58,470 nucleotides of DNA from Gemmatimonadales bacterium (lineage in GTDB: Bacteria > Gemmatimonadota > Gemmatimonadetes > Gemmatimonadales > GWC2-71-9). Each line of letters begins with the position of its first letter. The stretch's first letter is position 1. The translations under genes and the position numbers were made by a program. Where the stretch lies: contig JBFJHJ010000019.1 in assembly GCA_041613315.1 (NCBI GenBank), forward strand, positions 1-58,470. The letters run 5' to 3'. Below, piece after piece: positions 25,228 through 44,948 of the stretch. The notes under the pieces are model-generated. The model saw nothing but the letters and a program-made list of their open reading frames with translations. It was not told where the DNA came from and ran no database searches.

Positions 25228-26171
25228 GCGAGCGGGTGCTCGTGACGGGCGGGGCGGGGTTCATCGGTTCCCACGTGGCCGAGCGCTACCTGGCGGAGGG
25301 CTTCGAGGTGACGGTGCTCGACGACCTGTCACACGGGAAGCGCGAGCACGTCCCGGCCGGGGCCGCCTTCGTGCAGGCCGATGTCGCCTCACCTGAGGCC
25401 CGTGCCCTGCTCGCCGAGGGGGCGTTCACCGTGCTGAACCATCACGCCGCCCAGGCGGACGTCCGTGTGTCGGTCCGTGACCCCGTGTTCGATGCCCAGG
25501 TCAATCTCCTGGGGCTGCTCAACGTGCTCGAGGGCGCCCGCGCGGGCGGCGTGCGCCGCGTGGTCTTCGCGTCGTCGGGCGGGGTCGTGTACGGCGAGGG
25601 GACGCCGCCCTTCGCCGAGGAGGCCGCGAAGCTGCCGGTGTCGCCCTACGGCGTCAGCAAGCTGGGGTCGGAGTACTACTTGGCGGCGTACGCCCAGCTC
25701 TACGACCTCGAGACCGTGGCGCTCCGATACGCGAACGTGTACGGTCCCCGGCAGGATCCGCACGGCGAGGCCGGAGTGGTCGCGATCTTCTGCGACCGCC
25801 TGCGGGCGGGGCAGCCGGTGACCGTATACGGCGACGGAGAACAGACCCGCGATTACGTGCACGTGTCCGACGTCGCCCGCGCCAACCTCGCGGCCACCAC
25901 GTGTGCCGTGCCGCCGCTCGGCGCGATCGACGACGTGGCGTTCAACGTGGGCACCGGGGTGGAAACCAGCGTCAACGCGCTGGTGGCAGGGTTGCGGGAG
26001 GCGACCGGCCGCCCGGTGCCCGTGGACCGGGCGCCCGCGCGGGCGGGCGAACTTGCTCGGAGCGCCGTCCGCATCGCCAAGGCCGCCCGCCTCTGGGGCT
26101 GGGGGCCCACCTGCTCGCTCACGGCGGGGCTCAAACAGACCTATCACTGGGTTGCGGAGGAAGCGGCATGA
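25224..26171 (+). CDS. NAD-dependent epimerase/dehydratase (GalE-like)
   Basis: LVTGGAGFIGSH, HHAAQADVR, YGVSK, RYANVYGPRQDPHGEAGVV. Confidence 0.9.
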   Translation: MSERVLVTGGAGFIGSHVAERYLAEGFEVTVLDDLSHGKREHVPAGAAFVQADVASPEARALLAEGAFTVLNHHAAQADVRVSVRDPVFDAQVNLLGLLNVLEGARAGGVRRVVFASSGGVVYGEGTPPFAEEAAKLPVSPYGVSKLGSEYYLAAYAQLYDLETVALRYANVYGPRQDPHGEAGVVAIFCDRLRAGQPVTVYGDGEQTRDYVHVSDVARANLAATTCAVPPLGAIDDVAFNVGTGVETSVNALVAGLREATGRPVPVDRAPARAGELARSAVRIAKAARLWGWGPTCSLTAGLKQTYHWVAEEAA

Positions 26172-26881
26172 TGCTGCAGGTGGGAGGCGCGTTGCCGACC
26201 AGCGCGTGGGAGCTGATCACGGCGTCGTCCCAGGCGACCAAGGGGGTGATGGCCATCTTGTTGCTGTTCTCTGCGGTCAGCTGGTTCCTGATCGTGCTCA
26301 AGGTGGTGCAGTTTCGACGCGTGCGGCGGCAAGCGGACCGGTTTTTCGACGAGCTGGAGCGAACCACCCGCCTGGAGGATGCCTATCACGCGGTGATGAA
26401 ACTGCCGCCGTCGCCGTACGGTCGTCTCCTGCGGGAAGGCGTCAATTTCTTCTCCGAGCTCCGTCCGGGCTCCCTCCAGGCGGAGCGGGGCGCCGGGGTC
26501 GCCACGCTATCGCACACGCAACTCGAGGTGCTGCAGATGATGCTGGGGAAGGAAGTGGGCGCAGAGCGGGACATCATGGCCCGGTTCCTCCCATGGCTCG
26601 CGACGATCGGCTCGGTGAGCCCACTGCTCGGTCTGTTGGGGACGGTGATCGGGGTGATGAACGCGTTCATCGGCATCGCCGCGGGCGGCTCGGGGAACAT
26701 CTCCGCGGTCGCGCCCGGGGTGGCGGAGGCGCTGATCACCACCGTGCTCGGGCTCGCGGTGGCCATCCCGGCGGTCATCGCCTATAACGTGTTCGTCAAC
26801 CGCCTCGGGCTCTTCGCCGGCGAGCTGGACGGCTTCGCGCGGGAGATCGTGGGCACCATGGCCAGGGAAGGGAAGGTGTGA
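26168..26881 (+). CDS. tolQ: MotA/TolQ/ExbB proton channel protein
   Basis: LATIGSVSPLLGLLGTVIG, VAPGVAEALITT.LGL.VAIPA; first gene of a tol-pal cluster. Confidence 0.9.
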   Translation: MMLQVGGALPTSAWELITASSQATKGVMAILLLFSAVSWFLIVLKVVQFRRVRRQADRFFDELERTTRLEDAYHAVMKLPPSPYGRLLREGVNFFSELRPGSLQAERGAGVATLSHTQLEVLQMMLGKEVGAERDIMARFLPWLATIGSVSPLLGLLGTVIGVMNAFIGIAAGGSGNISAVAPGVAEALITTVLGLAVAIPAVIAYNVFVNRLGLFAGELDGFAREIVGTMAREGKV

Positions 26882-27318
26882 GAGTGGCGAGTCGCGGAGT
26901 GCACGAAGGCCTCCACGCCCGCGGTGAGCTCCCGCTCGCGGCGGACATCAATGTCACGTCTCTGGTGGACGTCGCCTTTGTGCTGCTTATCATCTTCATG
27001 ATCACGGCGCCCATCATGCAGGGCGGGGTGGACGTGCAGCTCCCGCGCGCCGAAGCGCGCCCGCTGCAGCCGCGCCAGGGCTTGATCGTCTCGGTGGACC
27101 GCCAGGGGCGGATCTTCGTCGACGAGAACCCCCTCACGTACGCGGACTTCCGCGCCGGCTTCCGGGCGATCGTGACGGCCCGGCAGCCCGAGGGCGTCTA
27201 TCTTCGCGCCGACAGTCGAGCCACCTACGGCGATGTCGTGCGCGTCCTGGCGGTCATGCGTGCGTCCGGGGTGGGCGACGTGGGACTCGTTGCTGAGGAC
27301 GAGCGGATCGGACGGTGA
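26878..27318 (+). CDS. tolR: TolR/ExbD biopolymer transport protein
   Basis: INVTSLVDVAFVLLIIFMITAP, VYLRAD. Confidence 0.9.
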   Translation: MRVASRGVHEGLHARGELPLAADINVTSLVDVAFVLLIIFMITAPIMQGGVDVQLPRAEARPLQPRQGLIVSVDRQGRIFVDENPLTYADFRAGFRAIVTARQPEGVYLRADSRATYGDVVRVLAVMRASGVGDVGLVAEDERIGR

Positions 27319-28022
27319 GCAGGCGGCCGATGTGGCGCGCGGGGCTGCGGGGGCGCGAGCCCCGTGGGAACGGCGTAGCGCTCCTCGGGACGCTGGTCAT
27401 TCACGGCGCCATGGCCTTGGGCATCGCGGTCTCGCCCTCGATGGTGCCTCGGGCGATGCCCCCGGTCTATCAGGTCGAGCTCGTCGCGGCGCCGCGAGCG
27501 GAGCCGGAGCGCCGAAAGGCGCCCGAGGTCGTGGAGCGGCCGGCCGAGCGGCCGATGCCCTCACCCACGACGCCCCGCCGCACGTCGGTCGCCGAGACGC
27601 CACCGCCCCCCGTGGCTCAGGCGGAGCAAAAAGAGCTGCCGCCCCGGACGAATCCCGTCGAACAGCCCGCGCCGGGCGTGGAGCCGTCCACGGGCAGCGA
27701 CGTGGCCACGGTGAAGGTCAGCGGCATTGCGTTCGCCTACCCGGAGTACTTGCGTAATGTCGTGGCCCAGGTCTACCGGCGGTGGCAGCGTCCGTCGGGC
27801 ACCGTGTCGCTGCGCGCCGAGGTCTTGTTCTTCATCCACCGGGACGGCTCGATCTCGAACCTCCACTTCGTCCGACGCTCCGGAAGCTTCGCCTTCGACC
27901 TCGAGGCGCAGGGCGCGATCGAAGCGGCGGGCACGGCGCGCGCCTTTGGACCGCTCCCGGCAGGGTATAATGCAGATGTGTTGCCCGTGAGCTTCTTCTT
28001 CGATCCGTCGAGCACGCGATGA
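27315..28022 (+). CDS. TolA/TonB-family energy transducer
   Basis: Single TM with His, Pro-rich linker, C-terminal domain IHRDGSI...RSGSFAFD.EA. Confidence 0.8.
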   Translation: MSRRPMWRAGLRGREPRGNGVALLGTLVIHGAMALGIAVSPSMVPRAMPPVYQVELVAAPRAEPERRKAPEVVERPAERPMPSPTTPRRTSVAETPPPPVAQAEQKELPPRTNPVEQPAPGVEPSTGSDVATVKVSGIAFAYPEYLRNVVAQVYRRWQRPSGTVSLRAEVLFFIHRDGSISNLHFVRRSGSFAFDLEAQGAIEAAGTARAFGPLPAGYNADVLPVSFFFDPSSTR

Positions 28023-29437
28023 CGGCCGCCGCGGCGCCGCGTCGCGCGAGCGTCCACGTGGGTGTTGGGCGGGCCCTGGGCACGCTGCTCACGTTGGCCG
28101 CCCTGGCCCACCCGGCTCGGGCTCAGGACACCGTCCCGCCGGTCGAACAGGGGGTCCGGATCGGCATCACGTACACACCGGGTCAGCGGCCCGGGCTGCT
28201 CGTGCTCGGTGGGCTGCGGGCGGCCGCGCTCGACTCCATCCGGGCAATCCTGGAGCGCGACCTGGACTTCAGCGACCGCTTCGAAATGATCTCGCTTCCC
28301 GCGGGGGAGGGACTGACGCTGGGAATGGTGGGCTCGGCCGGCGAGCCCGCGCCCGCCGACCCACCGGCGACGGGGTCGCCCGCGCCGTTCGTCAACTACC
28401 CGCTGTACGCGGCGCTCGGCGCAGAGTTCGCCGTGGCGGTCGATCCGGGCGCCGACTCGAACTGGGCGGCGGTGAGCCTGTACGACGTCCGCGGGGCGGG
28501 GGAGCGGGAGCGCGCCCGCGTCTTGTTGCGGGACCCGGCGGATCCCGAGTTTCGCCTCGACGTCCACCGCGTGGCGGATCGGCTGGTCCAGGCCGCCACG
28601 GGCGAGCCGGGCATCGCGGCTTCCGGCCTGCTGTTCCTCGTGCGGGATCGTGTCTACCGCATCGACCCCGACCGAGCCGGGTTCGCCCCGGTCACGCCCG
28701 AGGGGGTGAGCGCCTTTTCCCCGACCTGGGACCCCCGGGGACAGCGGATCGTCTACAGCGAGCTGGCCGAGGGGTGGGGTCGGATCGTCGTGCACGACCT
28801 CCGGACGGGTGCCCGGAGCGTCGTACCGCCCACCACGCGCTACCTCAACTACACCCCGGTCGTCTCGCCCGCCGGGCGCACGCTCGCCTACACCCGCAGC
28901 GACGATGAAGGCACCGATATCTACACGTACAACTACGCCGCCAACTGTTGTTTGGAGCGCTTGACGGTGGGGCGCTTTTCGGATAACCTTTCCCCCACCT
29001 TCAGCCCGGATGGACGGCAGGTGGCGTTCGTGTCCACTCGGGCAGGGCTGCCGCAGATCTATGTGATGGCGGTGGATGGGACGCGCCAGGAACTGTTCGC
29101 GCCGTTCGACTATGGCGTGACCGGGAGTTCGTTCGCGCCCGAGTGGTCGCCGGACGGCACGCGCATCACCTTTCATCGTGACGTGCAAGGCAGTCCGCAG
29201 GTCTTCATCATGGACGTCCGGTCCCGGGTGGTCCGGCAGTTGACCAGCGCGGGGCGGAACGAGGATGCAACGTGGGCGCCGGACGGGCGCCACCTCGCTT
29301 TCGTTTCGGACCGCACCGGCACCCGGCAGATCTGGGTGATTGATATCGAGACGGGCCGGATTCGGCAGCTCACGACCGTCGGAGGCGCGAGCCTACCGGC
29401 GTGGTCACCACGGTTTACACAGCCGACACCACCATAA
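28019..29437 (+). CDS. tolB: TolB-like beta-propeller (PD40 repeats)
   Basis: DLDFSDRF; repeated P.WSPDG/FSPDG..AFVS units; position between tolA-like gene and pal. Confidence 0.85.
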   Translation: MTAAAAPRRASVHVGVGRALGTLLTLAALAHPARAQDTVPPVEQGVRIGITYTPGQRPGLLVLGGLRAAALDSIRAILERDLDFSDRFEMISLPAGEGLTLGMVGSAGEPAPADPPATGSPAPFVNYPLYAALGAEFAVAVDPGADSNWAAVSLYDVRGAGERERARVLLRDPADPEFRLDVHRVADRLVQAATGEPGIAASGLLFLVRDRVYRIDPDRAGFAPVTPEGVSAFSPTWDPRGQRIVYSELAEGWGRIVVHDLRTGARSVVPPTTRYLNYTPVVSPAGRTLAYTRSDDEGTDIYTYNYAANCCLERLTVGRFSDNLSPTFSPDGRQVAFVSTRAGLPQIYVMAVDGTRQELFAPFDYGVTGSSFAPEWSPDGTRITFHRDVQGSPQVFIMDVRSRVVRQLTSAGRNEDATWAPDGRHLAFVSDRTGTRQIWVIDIETGRIRQLTTVGGASLPAWSPRFTQPTPP

Positions 29438-29450
29438 TCATGGAGCGACG

Positions 29451-30083
29451 ATGAAACTCAAGTTCGCACTCACGCTCGGTGTGGCGGTCATCGTGACGGC
29501 GGCTGCGGCCGCCTGTGGCGGACCGCCGCCGCCGCCGCCACAGCCCGCGGTCGATTCCGCGGCCATTCGGGACTCGATCGCCCGGGCGCGCGCCGACTCG
29601 ATCGCGCGGGCCCGCGCCCGCGAGGACAGTATCCGTCGGGCTCGGGAGCGTGATGAGGCGATGCGCCGCGCCCGCGAGGATTCGGTCGCGCGCGCGACCA
29701 CGGCCGCCGTTCGCGCGATGCTACAGGCGCGGGTGAACTTCGACTTTGACCGGTCGAACATCCGGCCGGGTGATGCCCGGGTCTTGGATCAGAAGCTCGC
29801 GATCCTCCAGGCCAACCCGAACCTGCGCATCCAGATTACGGGGCACTGTGACGAGCGCGGCTCCGACGAGTACAACATGGCGCTGGGCAACCGGCGCGCG
29901 CTGGCCGCACGGGCGTACCTCACCGATCGTGGCATCGCGGCGGACCGCATCGGCACTCGCTCTATGGGCGAGCGCCAACCGCTCGCGGCGGGCAGTAACG
30001 AAACCGCCTGGGCACAGAATCGTCGCGACGAGTTTGAGATCACGGCCGGCGGCGACCGGCTGGTTCGGCCCGGCGGGATGTAA
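29451..30083 (+). CDS. pal: Peptidoglycan-associated lipoprotein (OmpA/Pal family), copy 1
   Basis: Lipobox AAAC; FDFDRS, ITGHCDERGSDEYNMALGNRRA, AWAQNRR. Confidence 0.9.
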   Translation: MKLKFALTLGVAVIVTAAAAACGGPPPPPPQPAVDSAAIRDSIARARADSIARARAREDSIRRARERDEAMRRAREDSVARATTAAVRAMLQARVNFDFDRSNIRPGDARVLDQKLAILQANPNLRIQITGHCDERGSDEYNMALGNRRALAARAYLTDRGIAADRIGTRSMGERQPLAAGSNETAWAQNRRDEFEITAGGDRLVRPGGM

Positions 30084-30101
30084 CCGCGGGAGGGGTTGCA
30101 C

Positions 30102-30136
30102 GGCGCGCCGCCGCCCCGAGCGGACGGCGGCGCGCC
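30102..30136 (+). terminator. GC-rich stem-loop after pal copy 1 (terminator or mRNA-stabilising hairpin)
   Basis: Perfect 12-bp inverted repeat GGCGCGCCGCCG / CGGCGGCGCGCC without a U-tract; second long imperfect hairpin at 30178-30224. Confidence 0.5.
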
Positions 30137-30247
30137 TGCCGGATTGATGGGCACACAAGCGAGCAATCACCGTGCGTCGGCTCGGCGCGAGACCCGGGTG
30201 GTCGGGGTTTTTCGTGCCGGGCCGCATGTGCCAAGAACGGAGTGATC

Positions 30248-30793
30248 ATGCGATTCACGAGTGCTACGACCCTTGCCGTCGCGCTGGCGCTGGCCGCCTG
30301 CGGTGGGCGGGAAGGCCAACAAGGGCAACAAGAGCAGCAGCAGGCCGCGCCGGACAGCATCGCGCGCGCCCGCGCGGCCGCGGACTCCGTGGCGCGTATC
30401 CGGGCGCAGACGGAAGAGGTCCGCACGATGGTCGCCCAGCGGATCCATTTCAATTTCGACCGTGCCCAGATCCGGCCGGCCGAGGATACGCGCATCATGG
30501 AACAGAAGGTGGCGATCCTCCAGGCCAATCCCGGCCTGCGCGTCGAGATCACCGGGCATTGCGATGAGCGTGGCCCGCGGGCGTACAACCAGGCGCTCGG
30601 CATGCGTCGTGCGGACGCCGCCAAGCGGCTGCTCACGAGCCGTGGGATCGCCGCCGATCGCATCACGACGCGCTCGCGGGGCGAAGACGAGCCGTTGAAC
30701 CCGGCACGCAACCGGGAAGCATGGGCCCAGAACCGTCGCGCGGAGTTCGCGATCACCGCAGGCGGTGACCGGCTGGTCCGGCCGGCGCGGTGA
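30248..30793 (+). CDS. Peptidoglycan-associated lipoprotein (OmpA/Pal family), copy 2
   Basis: Lipobox LAAC; IHFNFDRA, ITGHCDERG..YNQALGMRRA, AWAQNRRAEF; clear paralog of the upstream gene. Confidence 0.88.
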   Translation: MRFTSATTLAVALALAACGGREGQQGQQEQQQAAPDSIARARAAADSVARIRAQTEEVRTMVAQRIHFNFDRAQIRPAEDTRIMEQKVAILQANPGLRVEITGHCDERGPRAYNQALGMRRADAAKRLLTSRGIAADRITTRSRGEDEPLNPARNREAWAQNRRAEFAITAGGDRLVRPAR

Positions 30794-31569
30794 GAACGGC
30801 CTGGCTGCTCACCGCCGTGCTTGCCGTCAGCGGGTGCGCGCTCAAAGGCGACGTGCGGCGGGTCGAGCGGCAACTGCAGGGCCTCCGGGCGGAGACCACC
30901 CAGTCGGATTCCGCCCGGGCCGAACAGCTGGAGCAGGTGTTGGCCTTCCAGCAACGGGCCCTGGACTCCCTGTCCGTCCTGGTCCGGCGTGTCACCCTGT
31001 TCCAGGGCGACATGCGGACCGATCTCACGGAGGTCCAGCGCCAACTGGTACAGATCCAGGAGCTCACCGGCCAAAGCCAGCAGCGCCTGACCGAACTTCG
31101 CTCGCGCCTGGACCGGCGGGATGATGAGGTGCCCGCGACCGGGGCGCTCGACGATCAGCGTGCGGGGCGGCCGGCCGGGCCGGCGGGCGCGGACATCGGA
31201 GCTCAGCAGCTGTACGACCTCTCGCTGCAGCAGCTCCGCCGCGGCAGTCCCCAGACGGCCCGGGCGGGGTTCCGCAAGCTGCTGTCGGACTTCCCGCAGC
31301 ACCCGCTCGCCGGCGACGCGCAGTTCTTCATCGGCGAGTCGTGGGAGGAAGCCAATGCGGACTCGGCCGCCGTGGCCTACGAGCAGGTCGTCCGGAGATA
31401 CTCGGACTCACGCCACGCGCCCACCGCGCTCTACCGTCTCGGACTCATCGCCGAGCGGCGCGGGGACCGCCGGGCGGCACAGGTGTATTACTCACGCGTC
31501 GTCGCCGGATACCCGCGCTCCGAAGAGGCGCAACTCGCCAGGGCCAAGCTGGGGACGCCACAGCGCTGA
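30790..31569 (+). CDS. cpoB: Tol-Pal system protein CpoB/YbgF-like (coiled coil + TPR)
   Basis: Lipobox-like SGC, coiled coil, FPQHPLAGDAQFFIGE, APTALYRLG, YPRSEEA; directly after pal. Confidence 0.8.
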   Translation: MRTAWLLTAVLAVSGCALKGDVRRVERQLQGLRAETTQSDSARAEQLEQVLAFQQRALDSLSVLVRRVTLFQGDMRTDLTEVQRQLVQIQELTGQSQQRLTELRSRLDRRDDEVPATGALDDQRAGRPAGPAGADIGAQQLYDLSLQQLRRGSPQTARAGFRKLLSDFPQHPLAGDAQFFIGESWEEANADSAAVAYEQVVRRYSDSRHAPTALYRLGLIAERRGDRRAAQVYYSRVVAGYPRSEEAQLARAKLGTPQR

Positions 31570-31596
31570 CGCCCGGCGGCGTCCGGCCTCCGGACC

Positions 31597-34500
31597 ATGA
31601 AGGCGAAACCTCCCAAGGGCGACATGCCCTTCCTCGACCACCTCGAGGAGCTGAGGTGGCGCATCCTGTGGAGCCTGCTGGCGCTGACCATCGGCGTCGT
31701 CGTGGGCTTCTTCGTCGTCCAGCGCTTCGACGTGCTCGGCCTGCTCCGGGTCCCCATCGCGCCGTATCTGCCCGACGGCCGCCTCTTCGTCACCCGACCC
31801 ACCGACGCGTTCATGATCACGCTCAAGCTGGCCGTGGGCGTGGGCTTGGTGCTGGCGTCGCCGGTGATCGTCGCCCAGGTGTGGCTGTTCCTCTCTCCCG
31901 CGCTCTTCCCCCACGAGCGGCGCTACCTGATGCCCGCGCTCATCGCGGGGGCCAGCCTGTTCCTCGTCGGTGTGGTGATGGCGTATCGCTGGGTCCTCCC
32001 CGCGGCGCTGCGGTTCCTGCTCATGTTTCAGCGCGAGGATCTGGAAACCATCATTACCGCGAACGAGTACCTCGCCTTCGCGATCCAGTTGATCGTGGCC
32101 TTCGGCCTCGTGTTCGAGCTGCCCCTCGTGATGGTGCTGCTGGCCGGGTTGGGCCTCGTGTCGCCCGCCACCTTTGCGCGACAGCGGCCCATCGCCCTCG
32201 TGTTGGCCTGTGTCGTGGCGGCGCTGGTCACGCCGCCCGACGTCGCGTCGATGGTGCTCATGCTGGTCCCGATGTGGGTGCTGTACGAAGCGGGGATCGC
32301 CGTGGGGCGCGTCGCGTACCGCCGCCGGGCGCAGCGGACGATCGGGACGGCCGCCCTGGTGCTGCTCGCCGTGGCGGCGGCGCCGGAGCAGGCGGCGGCC
32401 CAGCAGCCCACGCCGCCACCGACCGACACCGCTCGCGTGCGCGTGGACTCGCTCTCCCAACCCATGGATACGGCGGCCGCTCGTCGCTTGGGCCTTCCCA
32501 CGGCGCCGAGCCGCTCCCTCCCGCCCGCCGATTCGGTGCTCCAGGCGCTGCTGCGTCGCGCCGGCTATACCGTCACCCGCTACGCCGGGGATAGCGTCAC
32601 GCTGTTCGGGGAGACCAACGAGATCCAGTTGGTGGGGTCGGCCCTGATCGAGCGCGACGGCACGACGCTCGAGGCGGATACGGTGAGCTTCCGCCAGGCG
32701 GCGTGCCGCCTCCGCGCCAACGGGTCCCCGGCCTTGTTCGAAAGCGGCACGGTGCTCGTCGGAGAGGGGATGCGCTACGACACGTGCGAGCGCCGCGGCA
32801 CCGTCGCCAGTGCGCTGACCAGCTTCCAGCAGTCGGGCGTGACCTGGTACCTGCGGGGCGGCCTCGAGATCGATTCGGCGTCCACCCGCGTCTACGGGGC
32901 TTCCAACGACATGACGAGCTGCGACCTGCCGACCCCGCATTACCACTTCGCGGCGGGGAACGTCAAGTGGGTCACGAACACGATCATGGTCGCCCGGCCG
33001 GCCGTCCTGTACGTGCGCGACGTCCCGATCCTGTGGTTACCGTTCATCTTCCAAGACATGCGGACCGGCCGGCGCACCGGCCTCCTCGTGCCACGCTTCG
33101 GCCTGAGCGACCTCGTGCGCCCGAACGAGGGCTACCGGCGCCATGTGTCCAACCTGGGCTACTACGTGGTGCTGAACGACTACCTCGACGTCCAGGCGTC
33201 GCTCGACTGGTTCGCGGGGAACTACATCGGTGTGAACGGCCAGATCCGCTACCGCTGGCTCGACCGCTTCCTCTCGGGCAACCTGGCCATGTCGCGCCTG
33301 TTCGAGGAGGGCCTGGCGGGGGAGCCGGGCGGCCGGTCGCTGCGGCTCCAGTGGAATCACGAGCAGAGCTTCAGCCAGCGCACGCGACTCACCGCGAGCG
33401 TAGACTTCGCCACGAGCGCGCGCGTCGTGCAACGCAACGCCGTGGATCCGTTTCTCCAGACCGCGACCCTCGGCAGCCGCTTGAATTTCAACAAGCAGTT
33501 CGACTGGGGCACCGTGTCGTTGGGTGGCAGCCGCACACAGGATCTCAGCAATGGAACCGTGTCGCAGACACTACCCACGCTCAGCCTCACGCCCCGGGCC
33601 ATCAACCTGTCGCGCGACGTGACGTGGTCCCCCACGATGTCGCTCACCAACACCCAGACGTTCGATCAAGGTCCGCCGATCCTCATCGCGCGACCGCCCC
33701 TGGACGGCGTGGCCCGCGACGACTCCCTCTTTCCCGACACGCGGACGACATCGCTGTCCGTCGGGACACCGTTACGGGTGGGCCAGTGGAATTGGACCAA
33801 CAGCTTCACCGTCGTGGACTTCCGCACGACGCGTCCCCAGACCCAGCCGTTCACGTTTCCGGATCCCAACAACCCGGCCGACAGCGTCAACCGCTACCTC
33901 GGCGAAGACTTCCGCACAGAGGTCAACTGGGAAACCGGGATCAACCTTCCCACCCTGTTTTCCTCCTCGTGGAAACTGCAGCCGTCGGTGGGGATCCGGA
34001 ACACGACCAGTGGGCCGTTCCTGCTGCGCAACGCCTTCACCCAGGGCGGATTCGTGAGCCAGGGGAAGCGCCTGGCGTTCGGCGCCAGTCTCTCGCCCAC
34101 CCTCTTCGGGTTCTTTCCCGGGTTCGGCCCGATCGCGCGCATTCGGCACGCGGTCTCGCCGCGGATCACTTGGAGCTACGCGCCCGCGGCCGACGTCCCG
34201 GACGCCTACGCCCGCGCCCTGAACCCGACGAACCCCGACGCCGTGCGGACCAGCCCGGCGCTGCATCAAGTGAGCTTCGGGCTCTCACAGATCTTCGAGG
34301 CGAAGCTCGAGTCGCCGCCGGGGGACACCGCCACGGATCCCCGCCAGGCGCCCAAGCGCAAGCTGCTCAGTATCCAGACGTCGTCGATCACCTATGACTT
34401 CGAACAGGCCAAGCTGGAAGGCCGGAACGGGTGGCGGACCCAGAGCCTCCAGAACACGCTCACGAGCGAGCTCCTCCCCGGCTTCAGCGTCGCAACGACC

Positions 34501-35103
34501 CACGACCTGTGGAACGGCCCCGTCGGGCTGGACACGTCGCCGTTCGATCCGTTTCTCCAGTCCGTCTCGGCCCGGTTCACCCTCTCCGCGCGGACCTTCG
34601 CCAGCATTCTGGGGCTGCTGACCGGTCGGGCCCCCCCGGAGGAAGGCCCCGAGGAGCGGCCGGGCCCCCAAGACCTGCTCCAACCCAGCGGAACCGGCCT
34701 CGGGCCGCCCACGAGTCTCGATGCCATCTTGGACCGCCAAGCGACCGCGCCGAGGGGCCGCGGATTGTCTGCGGCGTTCACCTACGATGACCGGCGCACC
34801 CGGCCGCAGCCCGACGCGCCGGCCAGCCGCGCGTTCGGGACCAACCGGACGCTCGGCATGCAAGTCGGCTTTTCCCCCACCGACAACTGGGGGGTGTCGT
34901 ATAACACGCAGTACAATTTCACGACGGACGAATTCACTCAGCACGTCCTGCGGCTCGATCGAGACCTGCATCGCTGGCGCGCCACGTTCTCGTTCATCAA
35001 GTCGCCCAACGGGAACTTCGCGTTCAACTTCTTCATCTCGCTGCTCGACCAGCCGGACATCAAGTTCACCTACGATCAGCGCACCGTCCGCCGGGAGCGC
35101 TGA
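31597..35103 (+). CDS. tatC: Fusion protein: twin-arginine translocase TatC (aa ~1-240) + internal signal peptide + LptD-like LPS-assembly outer membrane protein
   Basis: MPFLDHLEELRWR, QVWLFLSPALFPHE, FGLVFELP, VTPPD, LYE (TatC); then TSCDLPTPHYHF, LYVRDVPILWLPF, RRTGLLVPRFG, LGYY, RDLHRW (LptD-like); no stop between the two parts. Confidence 0.85.
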   Translation: MKAKPPKGDMPFLDHLEELRWRILWSLLALTIGVVVGFFVVQRFDVLGLLRVPIAPYLPDGRLFVTRPTDAFMITLKLAVGVGLVLASPVIVAQVWLFLSPALFPHERRYLMPALIAGASLFLVGVVMAYRWVLPAALRFLLMFQREDLETIITANEYLAFAIQLIVAFGLVFELPLVMVLLAGLGLVSPATFARQRPIALVLACVVAALVTPPDVASMVLMLVPMWVLYEAGIAVGRVAYRRRAQRTIGTAALVLLAVAAAPEQAAAQQPTPPPTDTARVRVDSLSQPMDTAAARRLGLPTAPSRSLPPADSVLQALLRRAGYTVTRYAGDSVTLFGETNEIQLVGSALIERDGTTLEADTVSFRQAACRLRANGSPALFESGTVLVGEGMRYDTCERRGTVASALTSFQQSGVTWYLRGGLEIDSASTRVYGASNDMTSCDLPTPHYHFAAGNVKWVTNTIMVARPAVLYVRDVPILWLPFIFQDMRTGRRTGLLVPRFGLSDLVRPNEGYRRHVSNLGYYVVLNDYLDVQASLDWFAGNYIGVNGQIRYRWLDRFLSGNLAMSRLFEEGLAGEPGGRSLRLQWNHEQSFSQRTRLTASVDFATSARVVQRNAVDPFLQTATLGSRLNFNKQFDWGTVSLGGSRTQDLSNGTVSQTLPTLSLTPRAINLSRDVTWSPTMSLTNTQTFDQGPPILIARPPLDGVARDDSLFPDTRTTSLSVGTPLRVGQWNWTNSFTVVDFRTTRPQTQPFTFPDPNNPADSVNRYLGEDFRTEVNWETGINLPTLFSSSWKLQPSVGIRNTTSGPFLLRNAFTQGGFVSQGKRLAFGASLSPTLFGFFPGFGPIARIRHAVSPRITWSYAPAADVPDAYARALNPTNPDAVRTSPALHQVSFGLSQIFEAKLESPPGDTATDPRQAPKRKLLSIQTSSITYDFEQAKLEGRNGWRTQSLQNTLTSELLPGFSVATTHDLWNGPVGLDTSPFDPFLQSVSARFTLSARTFASILGLLTGRAPPEEGPEERPGPQDLLQPSGTGLGPPTSLDAILDRQATAPRGRGLSAAFTYDDRRTRPQPDAPASRAFGTNRTLGMQVGFSPTDNWGVSYNTQYNFTTDEFTQHVLRLDRDLHRWRATFSFIKSPNGNFAFNFFISLLDQPDIKFTYDQRTVRRER

Positions 35104-35110
35104 TCGCCCC

Positions 35111-35141
35111 GCTCGATTGTCCTCTGCGGAGGACATCGAGC
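35111..35141 (+). terminator. Stem-loop downstream of tatC-lptD
   Basis: GCTCGA-T-TGTCCTC-TGCG-GAGGACA-TCGAGC; no U-tract. Confidence 0.45.
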
Positions 35142-35147
35142 CCGCCG

Positions 35148-35181
35148 ATGACACCGCATAACCCATTGTGTTATAATAACA
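35148..35181 (+). promoter_or_regulatory. Sigma70-type promoter with overlapping palindrome
   Basis: ATGACA (35148-53), 18 bp, TATAAT (35172-77) with extended TGn; palindrome TGTTAT-A-ATAACA (35169-81). Confidence 0.6.
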
Positions 35182-35256
35182 TATGACAGAGCCCCGCACG
35201 CGGCACGCTCCCTGCTCACTTGCGTGGCGAGGACGCCTTTATCGAGGAGAGCGCGT

Positions 35257-36417
35257 ATGCGACGCCTGATGGTGATACTCGTGGCCGGATTCGTCGTGGC
35301 CGCATGCCGGGAGTCCACGGCGCCCGGCATCGCCCGGCCCGAGAATCTCACGTACGACCTCCAGCCCAGCGGCGACCCGGCAGAGCCGGCGGGCATCCTG
35401 CTCCGCTGGGATGCGGTGACCGACCCCGGGCTCGAGGTATACCGCGTGTTCTCGCGCCCGGGGCAATCGGGCGCCTTTGGCCTGCGCGCATCCACGACGT
35501 CGACCACGTTCCACGATCGTGGCCGGCCGGATCTCGAGTATTTCGTGGTTGCGGTGAACAGCGACGGTCGGGAGAGCGCGGAGAGTGACCATGTGATCGT
35601 GGACGAGCGGCTCCGGCTTCAGGCGCCAAACTCGCTCAGCAGCATCACGCTCAGCCGCGCGATCCACCTCTTGTGGTCGGACAACCCCTATACGGCGGCG
35701 CCGAACGGCTTCAAGCAGTACCGCGTATACAGCACCGGATTCTCCCTCGACGACGGGCTGTGCGACCCCGCGTGGCGGCTCGAGGGGACGACGGTGGCGC
35801 CCGAGTTCCTGGTGGGCGCGATCACCAACGGCGTGCCGCTCTGCTTCGGCGTCTCCGCCGAGAGCATCGAGGGGTTCGAGAGCCTGTGGTCGCCGCTCCG
35901 GGCCGACACGCCGCGCCCGGATGCCCGCAACATCGTGATGGCGGCGGATCAGTTTGATCCGAGCATGAGCGGATTCCGGTTCTGGCTCGACGCCAACGGC
36001 GACGGCGCAGCCGGGGCGTCCGAGCTGGGGCTGGTGCGCAGCGGCGCGCTCGCGAACAACGACTTCGTCGTGAGCCGGGATGTGAACGGCAACTTCTTCT
36101 TCGTCCCGCTCCGGGCCAACACCACGGTGGCATTGTATGGCACCCAGCCCATCGCGGATCTCACATCCATCGACGTGGCGCCGGTGTCCGGCTACAGTCG
36201 CGTGGCGATCCAGGCGCTGCCCCGCTTCGGCTACGTCTTCCAGATGGATGGGGGCGACGGGTTCGCGCGCTTCGGCGGCATTCGGGTCACGCACGTCGGT
36301 CGCGACTTCGTCATCTTCGACTGGAGCTATCAGACCGATCCGGGCAATCCGGAGCTGTCGGTCGGGGCCGGGATTTTCACGGCCGGCAACGGAGGCCTGA
36401 CGGTCGTGCGTCAGTGA
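35257..36417 (+). CDS. Lipoprotein with two fibronectin type III-like domains, function unknown
   Basis: GAGGAG RBS; lipobox VAAC; LRWD...YRVF...YFVVAVNSDGRES and LLWSD...YRVY...GVSAESIEGFES FN3-like patterns. Confidence 0.7.
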   Translation: MRRLMVILVAGFVVAACRESTAPGIARPENLTYDLQPSGDPAEPAGILLRWDAVTDPGLEVYRVFSRPGQSGAFGLRASTTSTTFHDRGRPDLEYFVVAVNSDGRESAESDHVIVDERLRLQAPNSLSSITLSRAIHLLWSDNPYTAAPNGFKQYRVYSTGFSLDDGLCDPAWRLEGTTVAPEFLVGAITNGVPLCFGVSAESIEGFESLWSPLRADTPRPDARNIVMAADQFDPSMSGFRFWLDANGDGAAGASELGLVRSGALANNDFVVSRDVNGNFFFVPLRANTTVALYGTQPIADLTSIDVAPVSGYSRVAIQALPRFGYVFQMDGGDGFARFGGIRVTHVGRDFVIFDWSYQTDPGNPELSVGAGIFTAGNGGLTVVRQ

Positions 36418-44666: not shown

Positions 44667-44678
44667 GCGAGGGTGCCG

Positions 44679-44948
44679 ATGCCACTCATGGTGCTTCCGT
44701 TGATCGGCAATATCGGGATGCCAGAGCTCCTGGTCATCATGGCGGTCGTGCTGCTGGTTTTTGGGGCGAAGCGACTGCCGGAGATCGGAGCGTCGATGGG
44801 CAAGGGAATTCGGGAGTTCAAGAAGAGCATCCGGGATGTGCGGGAGAGCATTGAAGACAGCGATACCGAGACCACGGCACCCCCGCGCCAGATCGACCGC
44901 CCGGCGGCCCGGCCGACGGACGGGGATCCGAAGAAGCTGAGCGAGTAG
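44679..44948 (+). CDS. tatA: Twin-arginine translocase TatA/TatE subunit
   Basis: IGMPELLVI..VLLVFGAKRLPEIG.SMGKGIREFKK. Confidence 0.93.
   Translation: MPLMVLPLIGNIGMPELLVIMAVVLLVFGAKRLPEIGASMGKGIREFKKSIRDVRESIEDSDTETTAPPRQIDRPAARPTDGDPKKLSE

Follow-up and report, generated by a model that had tools for sequence, protein, structure and literature searches.

A tatC::lptD gene in a single reading frame

The window analysed here, a stretch of 58,470 nucleotides from a metagenome-assembled genome of a Gemmatimonadales bacterium (contig JBFJHJ010000019.1 of assembly GCA_041613315.1), contains a gene in which the coding sequence of TatC, the core of the Tat translocase, runs on without interruption into that of LptD, the outer-membrane protein that inserts lipopolysaccharide (LPS). 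The original prediction had described the uninterrupted frame of 1168 codons, which we recover at 31597-35103, but had overlooked a signal-peptide-like segment (residues 242-268) between the two parts. The open reading frame (ORF) and its parts are as follows.

31597..35103, + strand: tatC::lptD fusion ORF, 1168 aa (stop-free frame, both Pfam domains, contig support)
31597..32319, + strand: TatC, residues 1-241, six membrane helices (PF00902, TIGR00945, hydrophobic segments, fold match)
32320..32340, + strand: basic stretch, residues 242-248, comprising the cytoplasmic end of TatC helix 6 and the n-region (net positive in 120/120 homologues)
32341..32382, + strand: hydrophobic h-region, residues 249-262 (hydrophobicity)
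32383..32400, + strand: c-region, residues 263-268, ending in Ala-Ala-Ala, with a predicted signal peptidase I cut at 32400/32401
32401..32469, + strand: predicted mature N-terminus, Gln269, and a Pro-rich stretch, modelled at low confidence, that contains D-(S/T)-x motifs (present in unfused LptD too)
32470..35103, + strand: LptD (LptD_2 family), with an N-terminal beta domain at about 327-481 and a beta-barrel at about 490-1163 (PF19838, model, Foldseek)

Codon usage is coding-like throughout the frame (GC3 of 0.82-1.0 in 40-codon blocks); Met10 (31624) is an alternative start, and some homologues begin nine residues later. The motifs from which a TatC part followed by an LptD-like part had originally been read are present in the translation, and in a Pfam search of the ORF both families exceed their cut-offs: PF00902 (TatC) matches residues 14-225 with 205 bits (cut-off 25), and PF19838 (LptD_2) scores 138 bits (cut-off 22.5) with its best stretch at 465-669, the C-terminal part thus matching an LptD model. 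Both domains are found in all 120 best homologues listed, that is, in the query and 119 other 90%-identity clusters, and the organisms, where the sources name one, belong to the Gemmatimonadales/Gemmatimonadota. In a search for long TatC proteins, the 120 matches listed out of 392 were all this same fusion.

The junction is crossed without gaps by contigs of run X3 (31300-34463, 0 other letters), of run X4 (31300-33526, 1 other letter and no difference at the junction) and, from a second study, of run X5 (32293-32547, 0 other letters), so that no break is seen at the junction; these are assembled contigs rather than raw reads, and X3 and X4 share their study with the possible source runs. The TatC-LptD fusion in one reading frame is real and not an assembly artefact. 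No further copy of either gene was found in the genome, whose completeness is 83%.

The two halves of the protein

The TatC half contains six hydrophobic segments and lies above the cut-off of TIGR00945 (tatC; 196 against 132.7). In Foldseek comparisons its model resembles the solved TatC structures of E. coli (9DZZ) and Aquifex (4B4A) with TM-scores of 0.82-0.84, the structural alignments covering 222-231 residues (Z 19-21, rmsd 2.8-3.2). Residues F98 and E107 align to F94 and E103 of E. coli TatC (alignment to 9DZZ) and are invariant in 120/120 homologues; passages of PMC13673990 name F94 and E103 as key twin-arginine binding residues. The protein therefore shares the six-helix fold and the signal-binding residues of TatC (PF00902, TIGR00945), but has a C-terminus that leads into a seventh hydrophobic stretch followed by LptD. 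Haloarchaea have fused or extended forms of TatC, and these 14-TM and 10-TM proteins are treated in parts of the same source, a 2026 Tat review.

An AlphaFold2 model of the whole fusion, built from 81 aligned homologues (mean pLDDT 77.9), arranges it as a helical N-terminal domain and, past a region of low confidence (247-288), a beta domain with a large barrel. All 15 leading Foldseek matches of this model are LptD-containing entries (E from 2e-24 to 1e-16), of which 14 are named LptD and the other, 4Q35, is titled only "membrane protein". Since residues 292-1153 of the model align with 4Q35 over its residues 32-764 (Z 15.9, 605 residues, rmsd 8.2), the LptD part is full length; unrelated barrels reach Z of 13-15 against the model, but over fewer than 400 residues. 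The likeness to proteobacterial LptD (E. coli 9KN3 and 4Q35, Neisseria 7OMM, 8H1S) lies in the N-terminal beta domain and the large barrel, with about 600 residues aligned. In other respects the two differ: the LptD of the fusion is only 10-16% identical, longer, assigned to LptD_2 rather than PF04453 (for which the ORF gave no match), and far below the proteobacterial equivalog models (25 against 944 bits for PRK03761, 14.5 against 683 bits for PRK04423). Its only cysteines are 370, 397 and 442, none of them near the C-terminus, whereas in proteobacterial LptD C-terminal cysteines serve inter-domain disulfides. LpxC, LptE and LptF/G, for LPS synthesis and as Lpt partners, are also encoded in the genome. 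Judged by these features, both halves look intact and are ordinary members of their families, with predicted transport and LPS-insertion activity.

The junction retains an apparent signal peptide of LptD

Past TatC helix 6 the chain proceeds through the basic stretch, the hydrophobic core and the sequence Pro-Glu-Gln-Ala-Ala-Ala to Gln269. Besides the net positive n-region, all 120 homologues have a core whose hydrophobicity reaches 2.6 or more (Kyte-Doolittle scale, over 8 residues) and a Gln no more than 16 residues past it. Small residues occupy positions -3 and -1 relative to the first such Gln in 108/120 homologues, against 73/309 for other Gln farther along the linker; the 12 misses include the present protein, in which Gln265 precedes the proposed site. 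Gln269 is invariant in 81/81 aligned homologues and forms the sole invariant column between 234 and 290.

The same arrangement is found where the two genes are separate. A compliant cleavage site before a Gln is present in 61/61 fused and 22/22 unfused loci (the 22 exclude three unfused loci whose starts are truncated or shifted), the 19-residue hydrophobicity is 1.76 in fused against 1.78 in unfused loci, and in the N-terminal beta domain the first strand lies a median of 67 residues past Gln269 in the former and 66 in the latter (47/61 and 19/22 loci scored). As site, hydrophobicity and linker length thus agree, the junction is, by sequence, the Sec signal peptide that unfused LptD carries, preserved whole within the chain.

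A Gln in this position is in keeping with other exported proteins of the organism: in this genome 102/300 predicted N-terminal signal peptides (34%) have Gln at +1, against a background of 2.8%, an enrichment of about twelvefold obtained with a heuristic blind to the +1 residue. Given this bias, an invariant Gln in an otherwise variable linker has the appearance expected of a used cleavage site. Passages of PMC5837995 report that most signal peptidase I substrates of Bacteroidetes start with Gln, which is then cyclised; the main text of that paper contains no mention of Gemmatimonad*. On this prediction, the Q-rule of Bacteroidetes would hold in a Gemmatimonadota genome as well.

Distribution and history of the fusion

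In an even draw of 67 genomes from the window's family (f1), 59 are fused, 6 have separate genes and 2 are unresolved; relatives within the family are therefore mostly fused rather than always separate, the latter being an outcome that would have told against the original prediction. The 59 comprise 55 genomes with one stop-free match across the junction, 3 fused on reading of the locus and 1 in frame through the signal to the contig end; one of them (G085) is unpublished, and the count without it is 58/66. In G081 (locus L041) the junction is fused, but the tatC match is split over two frames near the 5' end, through either an assembly error or a frameshift. Outside f1, fusions were found in 2/11 loci of f2, 0/8 of f3 and 0/16 of more distant families, all chosen by hand rather than at random; two further loci ended at contig edges.

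Across the phylum sample tatC and lptD are neighbours, and in the other families they are nearly always separate but adjacent. These separate pairs (the lptD likewise of the LptD_2 family) have the same order, mostly after cpoB, and the same signal ending small-x-small followed by Gln, but tatC ends in a stop after a short tail and lptD has its own start. In 8/8 split f2 loci the tatC stop and the lptD start overlap as GTGA, so that a small deletion would have been enough for fusion.

Separation is also seen within f1. Five f1 loci have adjacent but separate genes (G001, G010, G078, G127 and G206), and in three genomes (G007, G012 and G096; loci L029, L025 and L113) tatC is gone from the locus, and lptD, equipped with a signal peptide of its own, stands directly after cpoB; a tatC sits on another contig in G007 and G012. 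The split TatC proteins of G127 (L035) and G001 (L008) end in …SIGT and …TISGT, like the start of the fused linker, which may be read as a sign of secondary fission.

On an LptD tree (47 taxa, a chosen subset; 520 columns) 11 changes of the fused/separate label are required. G073/L033 and G035/L034, the two fusions of f2, each lie beside unfused sisters with branch support of 100/100, and within f1 separate forms are nested among the fused ones, in agreement with a wider FastTree phylogeny. One clade of f1 plus the two f2 fusions is rejected (p-AU 1e-7), the group having been named after the tree was seen. As the base of f1 is not resolved against f3, a single f1 origin is not proven. By this comparison of sequences, the tatC and lptD halves have separated repeatedly within the family. 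Such easy gain and loss points to a tolerated fusion rather than to a needed covalent link. In G035, a second tatC adjoins a second gene of the tatA family (contig C2).

Probable processing of the fusion protein

The original prediction had left two readings side by side, a polyprotein cleaved into proteins for two membranes and an uncleaved bridge between them. The internal signal peptide, with its site at Ala268/Gln269, speaks for the first, and we consider it very likely that the fusion is a polyprotein cut by signal peptidase I into an inner-membrane TatC and an outer-membrane LptD. The TatC helices would direct the ribosome to Sec and insert into the inner membrane, the basic stretch past helix 6 staying cytoplasmic. 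The old signal peptide of LptD would then insert as a seventh crossing and start export of the unfolded 900-residue LptD, and signal peptidase I would cleave after Ala268. Released LptD would take the normal BAM route from Gln269 onwards and work with LptE, while a TatC of 268 residues, including a 27-residue remnant that may be kept or trimmed, would stay in the inner membrane and work with the single TatA. The outcome is probably two ordinary proteins, and the fusion would be tolerated because processing restores them. Two signal peptidase I genes, Omp85 genes and M50 proteases are encoded in the genome. Passages of PMC5449189 describe E. coli constructs in which a polytopic protein was given a signal peptidase I site behind one of its internal helices so as to release the downstream domain.

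The fusion would have arisen when a coupled pair of tatC and lptD genes lost the stop and start between them, in a reversible manner. A fixed stoichiometry, which the original prediction had tied to the cleaved form, is only a putative purpose of the fusion: the stop and start codons of the two genes abutted or overlapped even in the unfused ancestors, so that coupled output probably predates the fusion.

Several points weigh against the cleaved polyprotein. Cleavage is predicted from sequence; signal peptides were scored with a heuristic of our own rather than SignalP, and the related sequences compared are not independent. A rule blind to the +1 residue placed the Gln site top in only 43/61 fused and 10/22 unfused loci. 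A search for the plant-type glutaminyl cyclase (PF05096) found none in the genome, the animal type not having been searched. A chain with an 8-residue hydrophobic core and Ala-x-Ala could persist for a while uncut. Finally, an in-frame start codon precedes the core in 51/61 fused loci, including the GTG at 32302 here.

If cutting were slow, partial or regulated, some covalent TatC-LptD would persist across the periplasm next to Tol-Pal and could tie LptD maturation to Tat assembly; we regard this as unlikely, and if true, the core of a Tat translocase would for the first time be linked to the LPS insertase of the outer membrane. It is similarly unlikely that a start codon within TatC helix 6 is the main source of LptD, which would then carry its signal peptide at a genuine N-terminus, while the full-length product supplied TatC only. 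The start codons in question (ATG, GTG or TTG between the LYE motif and the hydrophobic core) would permit this, and that at 32302 would yield a plausible signal peptide. They are absent from 10/61 fused loci, however, and where present are scattered in position and mostly Val codons of helix 6, with a Shine-Dalgarno-like match of at least 4 bases in only 14/61; no conserved internal start was found among the 61 fused loci. Moreover, TatC would still be produced attached to LptD and would require the same cut.

An uncleaved bridge, in which the seventh helix anchors the chain and a barrel-folded LptD remains tied to TatC, linking Tat export to sites of LPS insertion, is the weaker of the two readings of the original prediction, and we think it quite improbable. 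In its favour, dozens of genera have retained the fusion, and the roughly 67 residues between Gln269 and the beta domain, partly of low confidence, would geometrically permit a tether. Yet segment and linker show no change towards an anchor or a tether: the cleavage motif is kept in every fused locus, the hydrophobic segment is no stronger than that of unfused LptD and the linker is no longer. The halves have also come apart several times independently, and in three of these cases the locus no longer holds tatC. A tether might also hinder the movement of the TM5/TM6 domain of TatC, which Tat function needs according to passages of PMC13673990.

Tat export in cis, whereby TatC would read the Arg-rich linker as a twin-arginine signal and export its own LptD passenger, is very improbable. 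An RR pair occurs in the linker of 62/120 homologues, but RR-x-[FL]-[LIVMF] is found in 0/120, against 19 proteins of the genome that match the Tat-motif pattern (most, not all, of them credible substrates). Tat moves folded proteins, whereas barrels reach BAM unfolded. Internal Tat signals after membrane helices are nevertheless known, as parts of PMC13673990 state.

Deletion of a stop codon by a sequencing or assembly error is practically negligible as an explanation: although the source is a metagenome-assembled genome judged from contigs rather than raw reads, and such an error could fit the lone fused genome G035, where a full TatC tail precedes the signal, an artefact at 31597-35103 is refuted by the agreeing contigs from two studies, the 119 other clusters with both domains and the 59/67 fused genomes of the family.

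Neighbouring genes and other Tat components

Two further features of the genome bear on the surroundings of the fusion.

26168..31569, + strand: tolQ, tolR, tolA/TonB-like, tolB, pal, pal and a cpoB-like TPR protein (Pfam; upstream of tatC-lptD in most of the phylum sample)
44673..44948, + strand: tatA, the sole TatA/B/E-family gene found in the genome

The run of tol-pal-cpoB genes that the original prediction saw ending in the fusion ORF is supported by Pfam. Its two tandem genes for Pal/OmpA-family lipoproteins lie at 29451-30083 and 30242-30793, the first with a repetitive helical stalk. A scan of 30700-35500 for promoters and terminators gave a sole promoter-like site, 3' of the fusion ORF, and no terminator-like site; this strong sigma-70-like site (35148-35177, 11/12) stands before a conserved lipoprotein gene at about 35260-36417 without a Pfam match.

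The remnant helix left on TatC was considered as a substitute for TatB. This was not supported, a single TatA-family gene being usual in unfused genomes too: one such gene is present in 8/8 f3 and 5/8 f2 genomes (the latter set including the fused G035, which has two), and two in 6/24 f1 genomes. The orientation of TatB is, moreover, opposite to that expected of the remnant helix.

The fusion contains ten D-(S/T)-(A/I/L/V/M/T) motifs (32425-34326), all past the predicted cut and five of them within residues 277-334, and the motif was also noted for the pal genes (29451-30793). It reaches 1.52 times expectation in 112 exported-type proteins, compared with 0.90 in 666 proteins without a hydrophobic segment. 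The pattern is that of the Bacteroidetes O-glycosylation motif given in passages of PMC8550257, and its enrichment is a hint of an O-glycosylation system in Gemmatimonadota.

Relation to known systems and significance

Cleaved polyproteins are rare in bacteria. The closest counterpart is FbcH of Bradyrhizobium japonicum, reportedly described by Thony-Meyer, James and Hennecke in 1991, a cytochrome b/c1 precursor in which one gene is said to yield two proteins, with an internal linker, signal-like and containing an Ala-x-Ala site, behind a polytopic inner-membrane protein; both products are said to be subunits of one inner-membrane complex. We infer by analogy that the fusion works like FbcH, with which it would share the single gene and the internal signal. 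It differs in that the predicted products belong to unrelated machines in two membranes, the part set free being an outer-membrane barrel of 900 residues. A second parallel is offered by viral polyproteins that are cut at internal signals by the signal peptidase of the host, as there too the internal signal both translocates the next protein and supplies the cut; theirs is a eukaryotic endoplasmic reticulum system, whereas two core bacterial envelope genes are involved here. A scan of 1142 long ORFs of the genome for other internal-signal polyproteins returned the fusion ORF and one unconvincing match (an 11-helix protein, contig C2).

No published description of a TatC-LptD fusion was found among titles and the beginnings of abstracts, with subscription journals and supplements (where domain-architecture tables are possible) outside the search, and the text of the 2026 review (PMC13673990) contains no mention of LptD, Gemmatimonad* or polyprotein. 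Named homologues are annotated as TatC, bar one "hypothetical protein", so that lptD is hidden in the whole family.

LptD is essential in the Gram-negative bacteria studied. If the cleaved polyprotein is correct, this outer-membrane barrel would be exported behind six membrane helices and freed at an internal site, and one chain would supply two membranes, whereas FbcH, the closest precedent considered, is said to keep both products in one complex. The family would then provide a natural test of a co-translational route of a large barrel to BAM, of the tolerance of TatC for a seventh helix, and of the clearance of a signal peptide that remains joined to a membrane protein.

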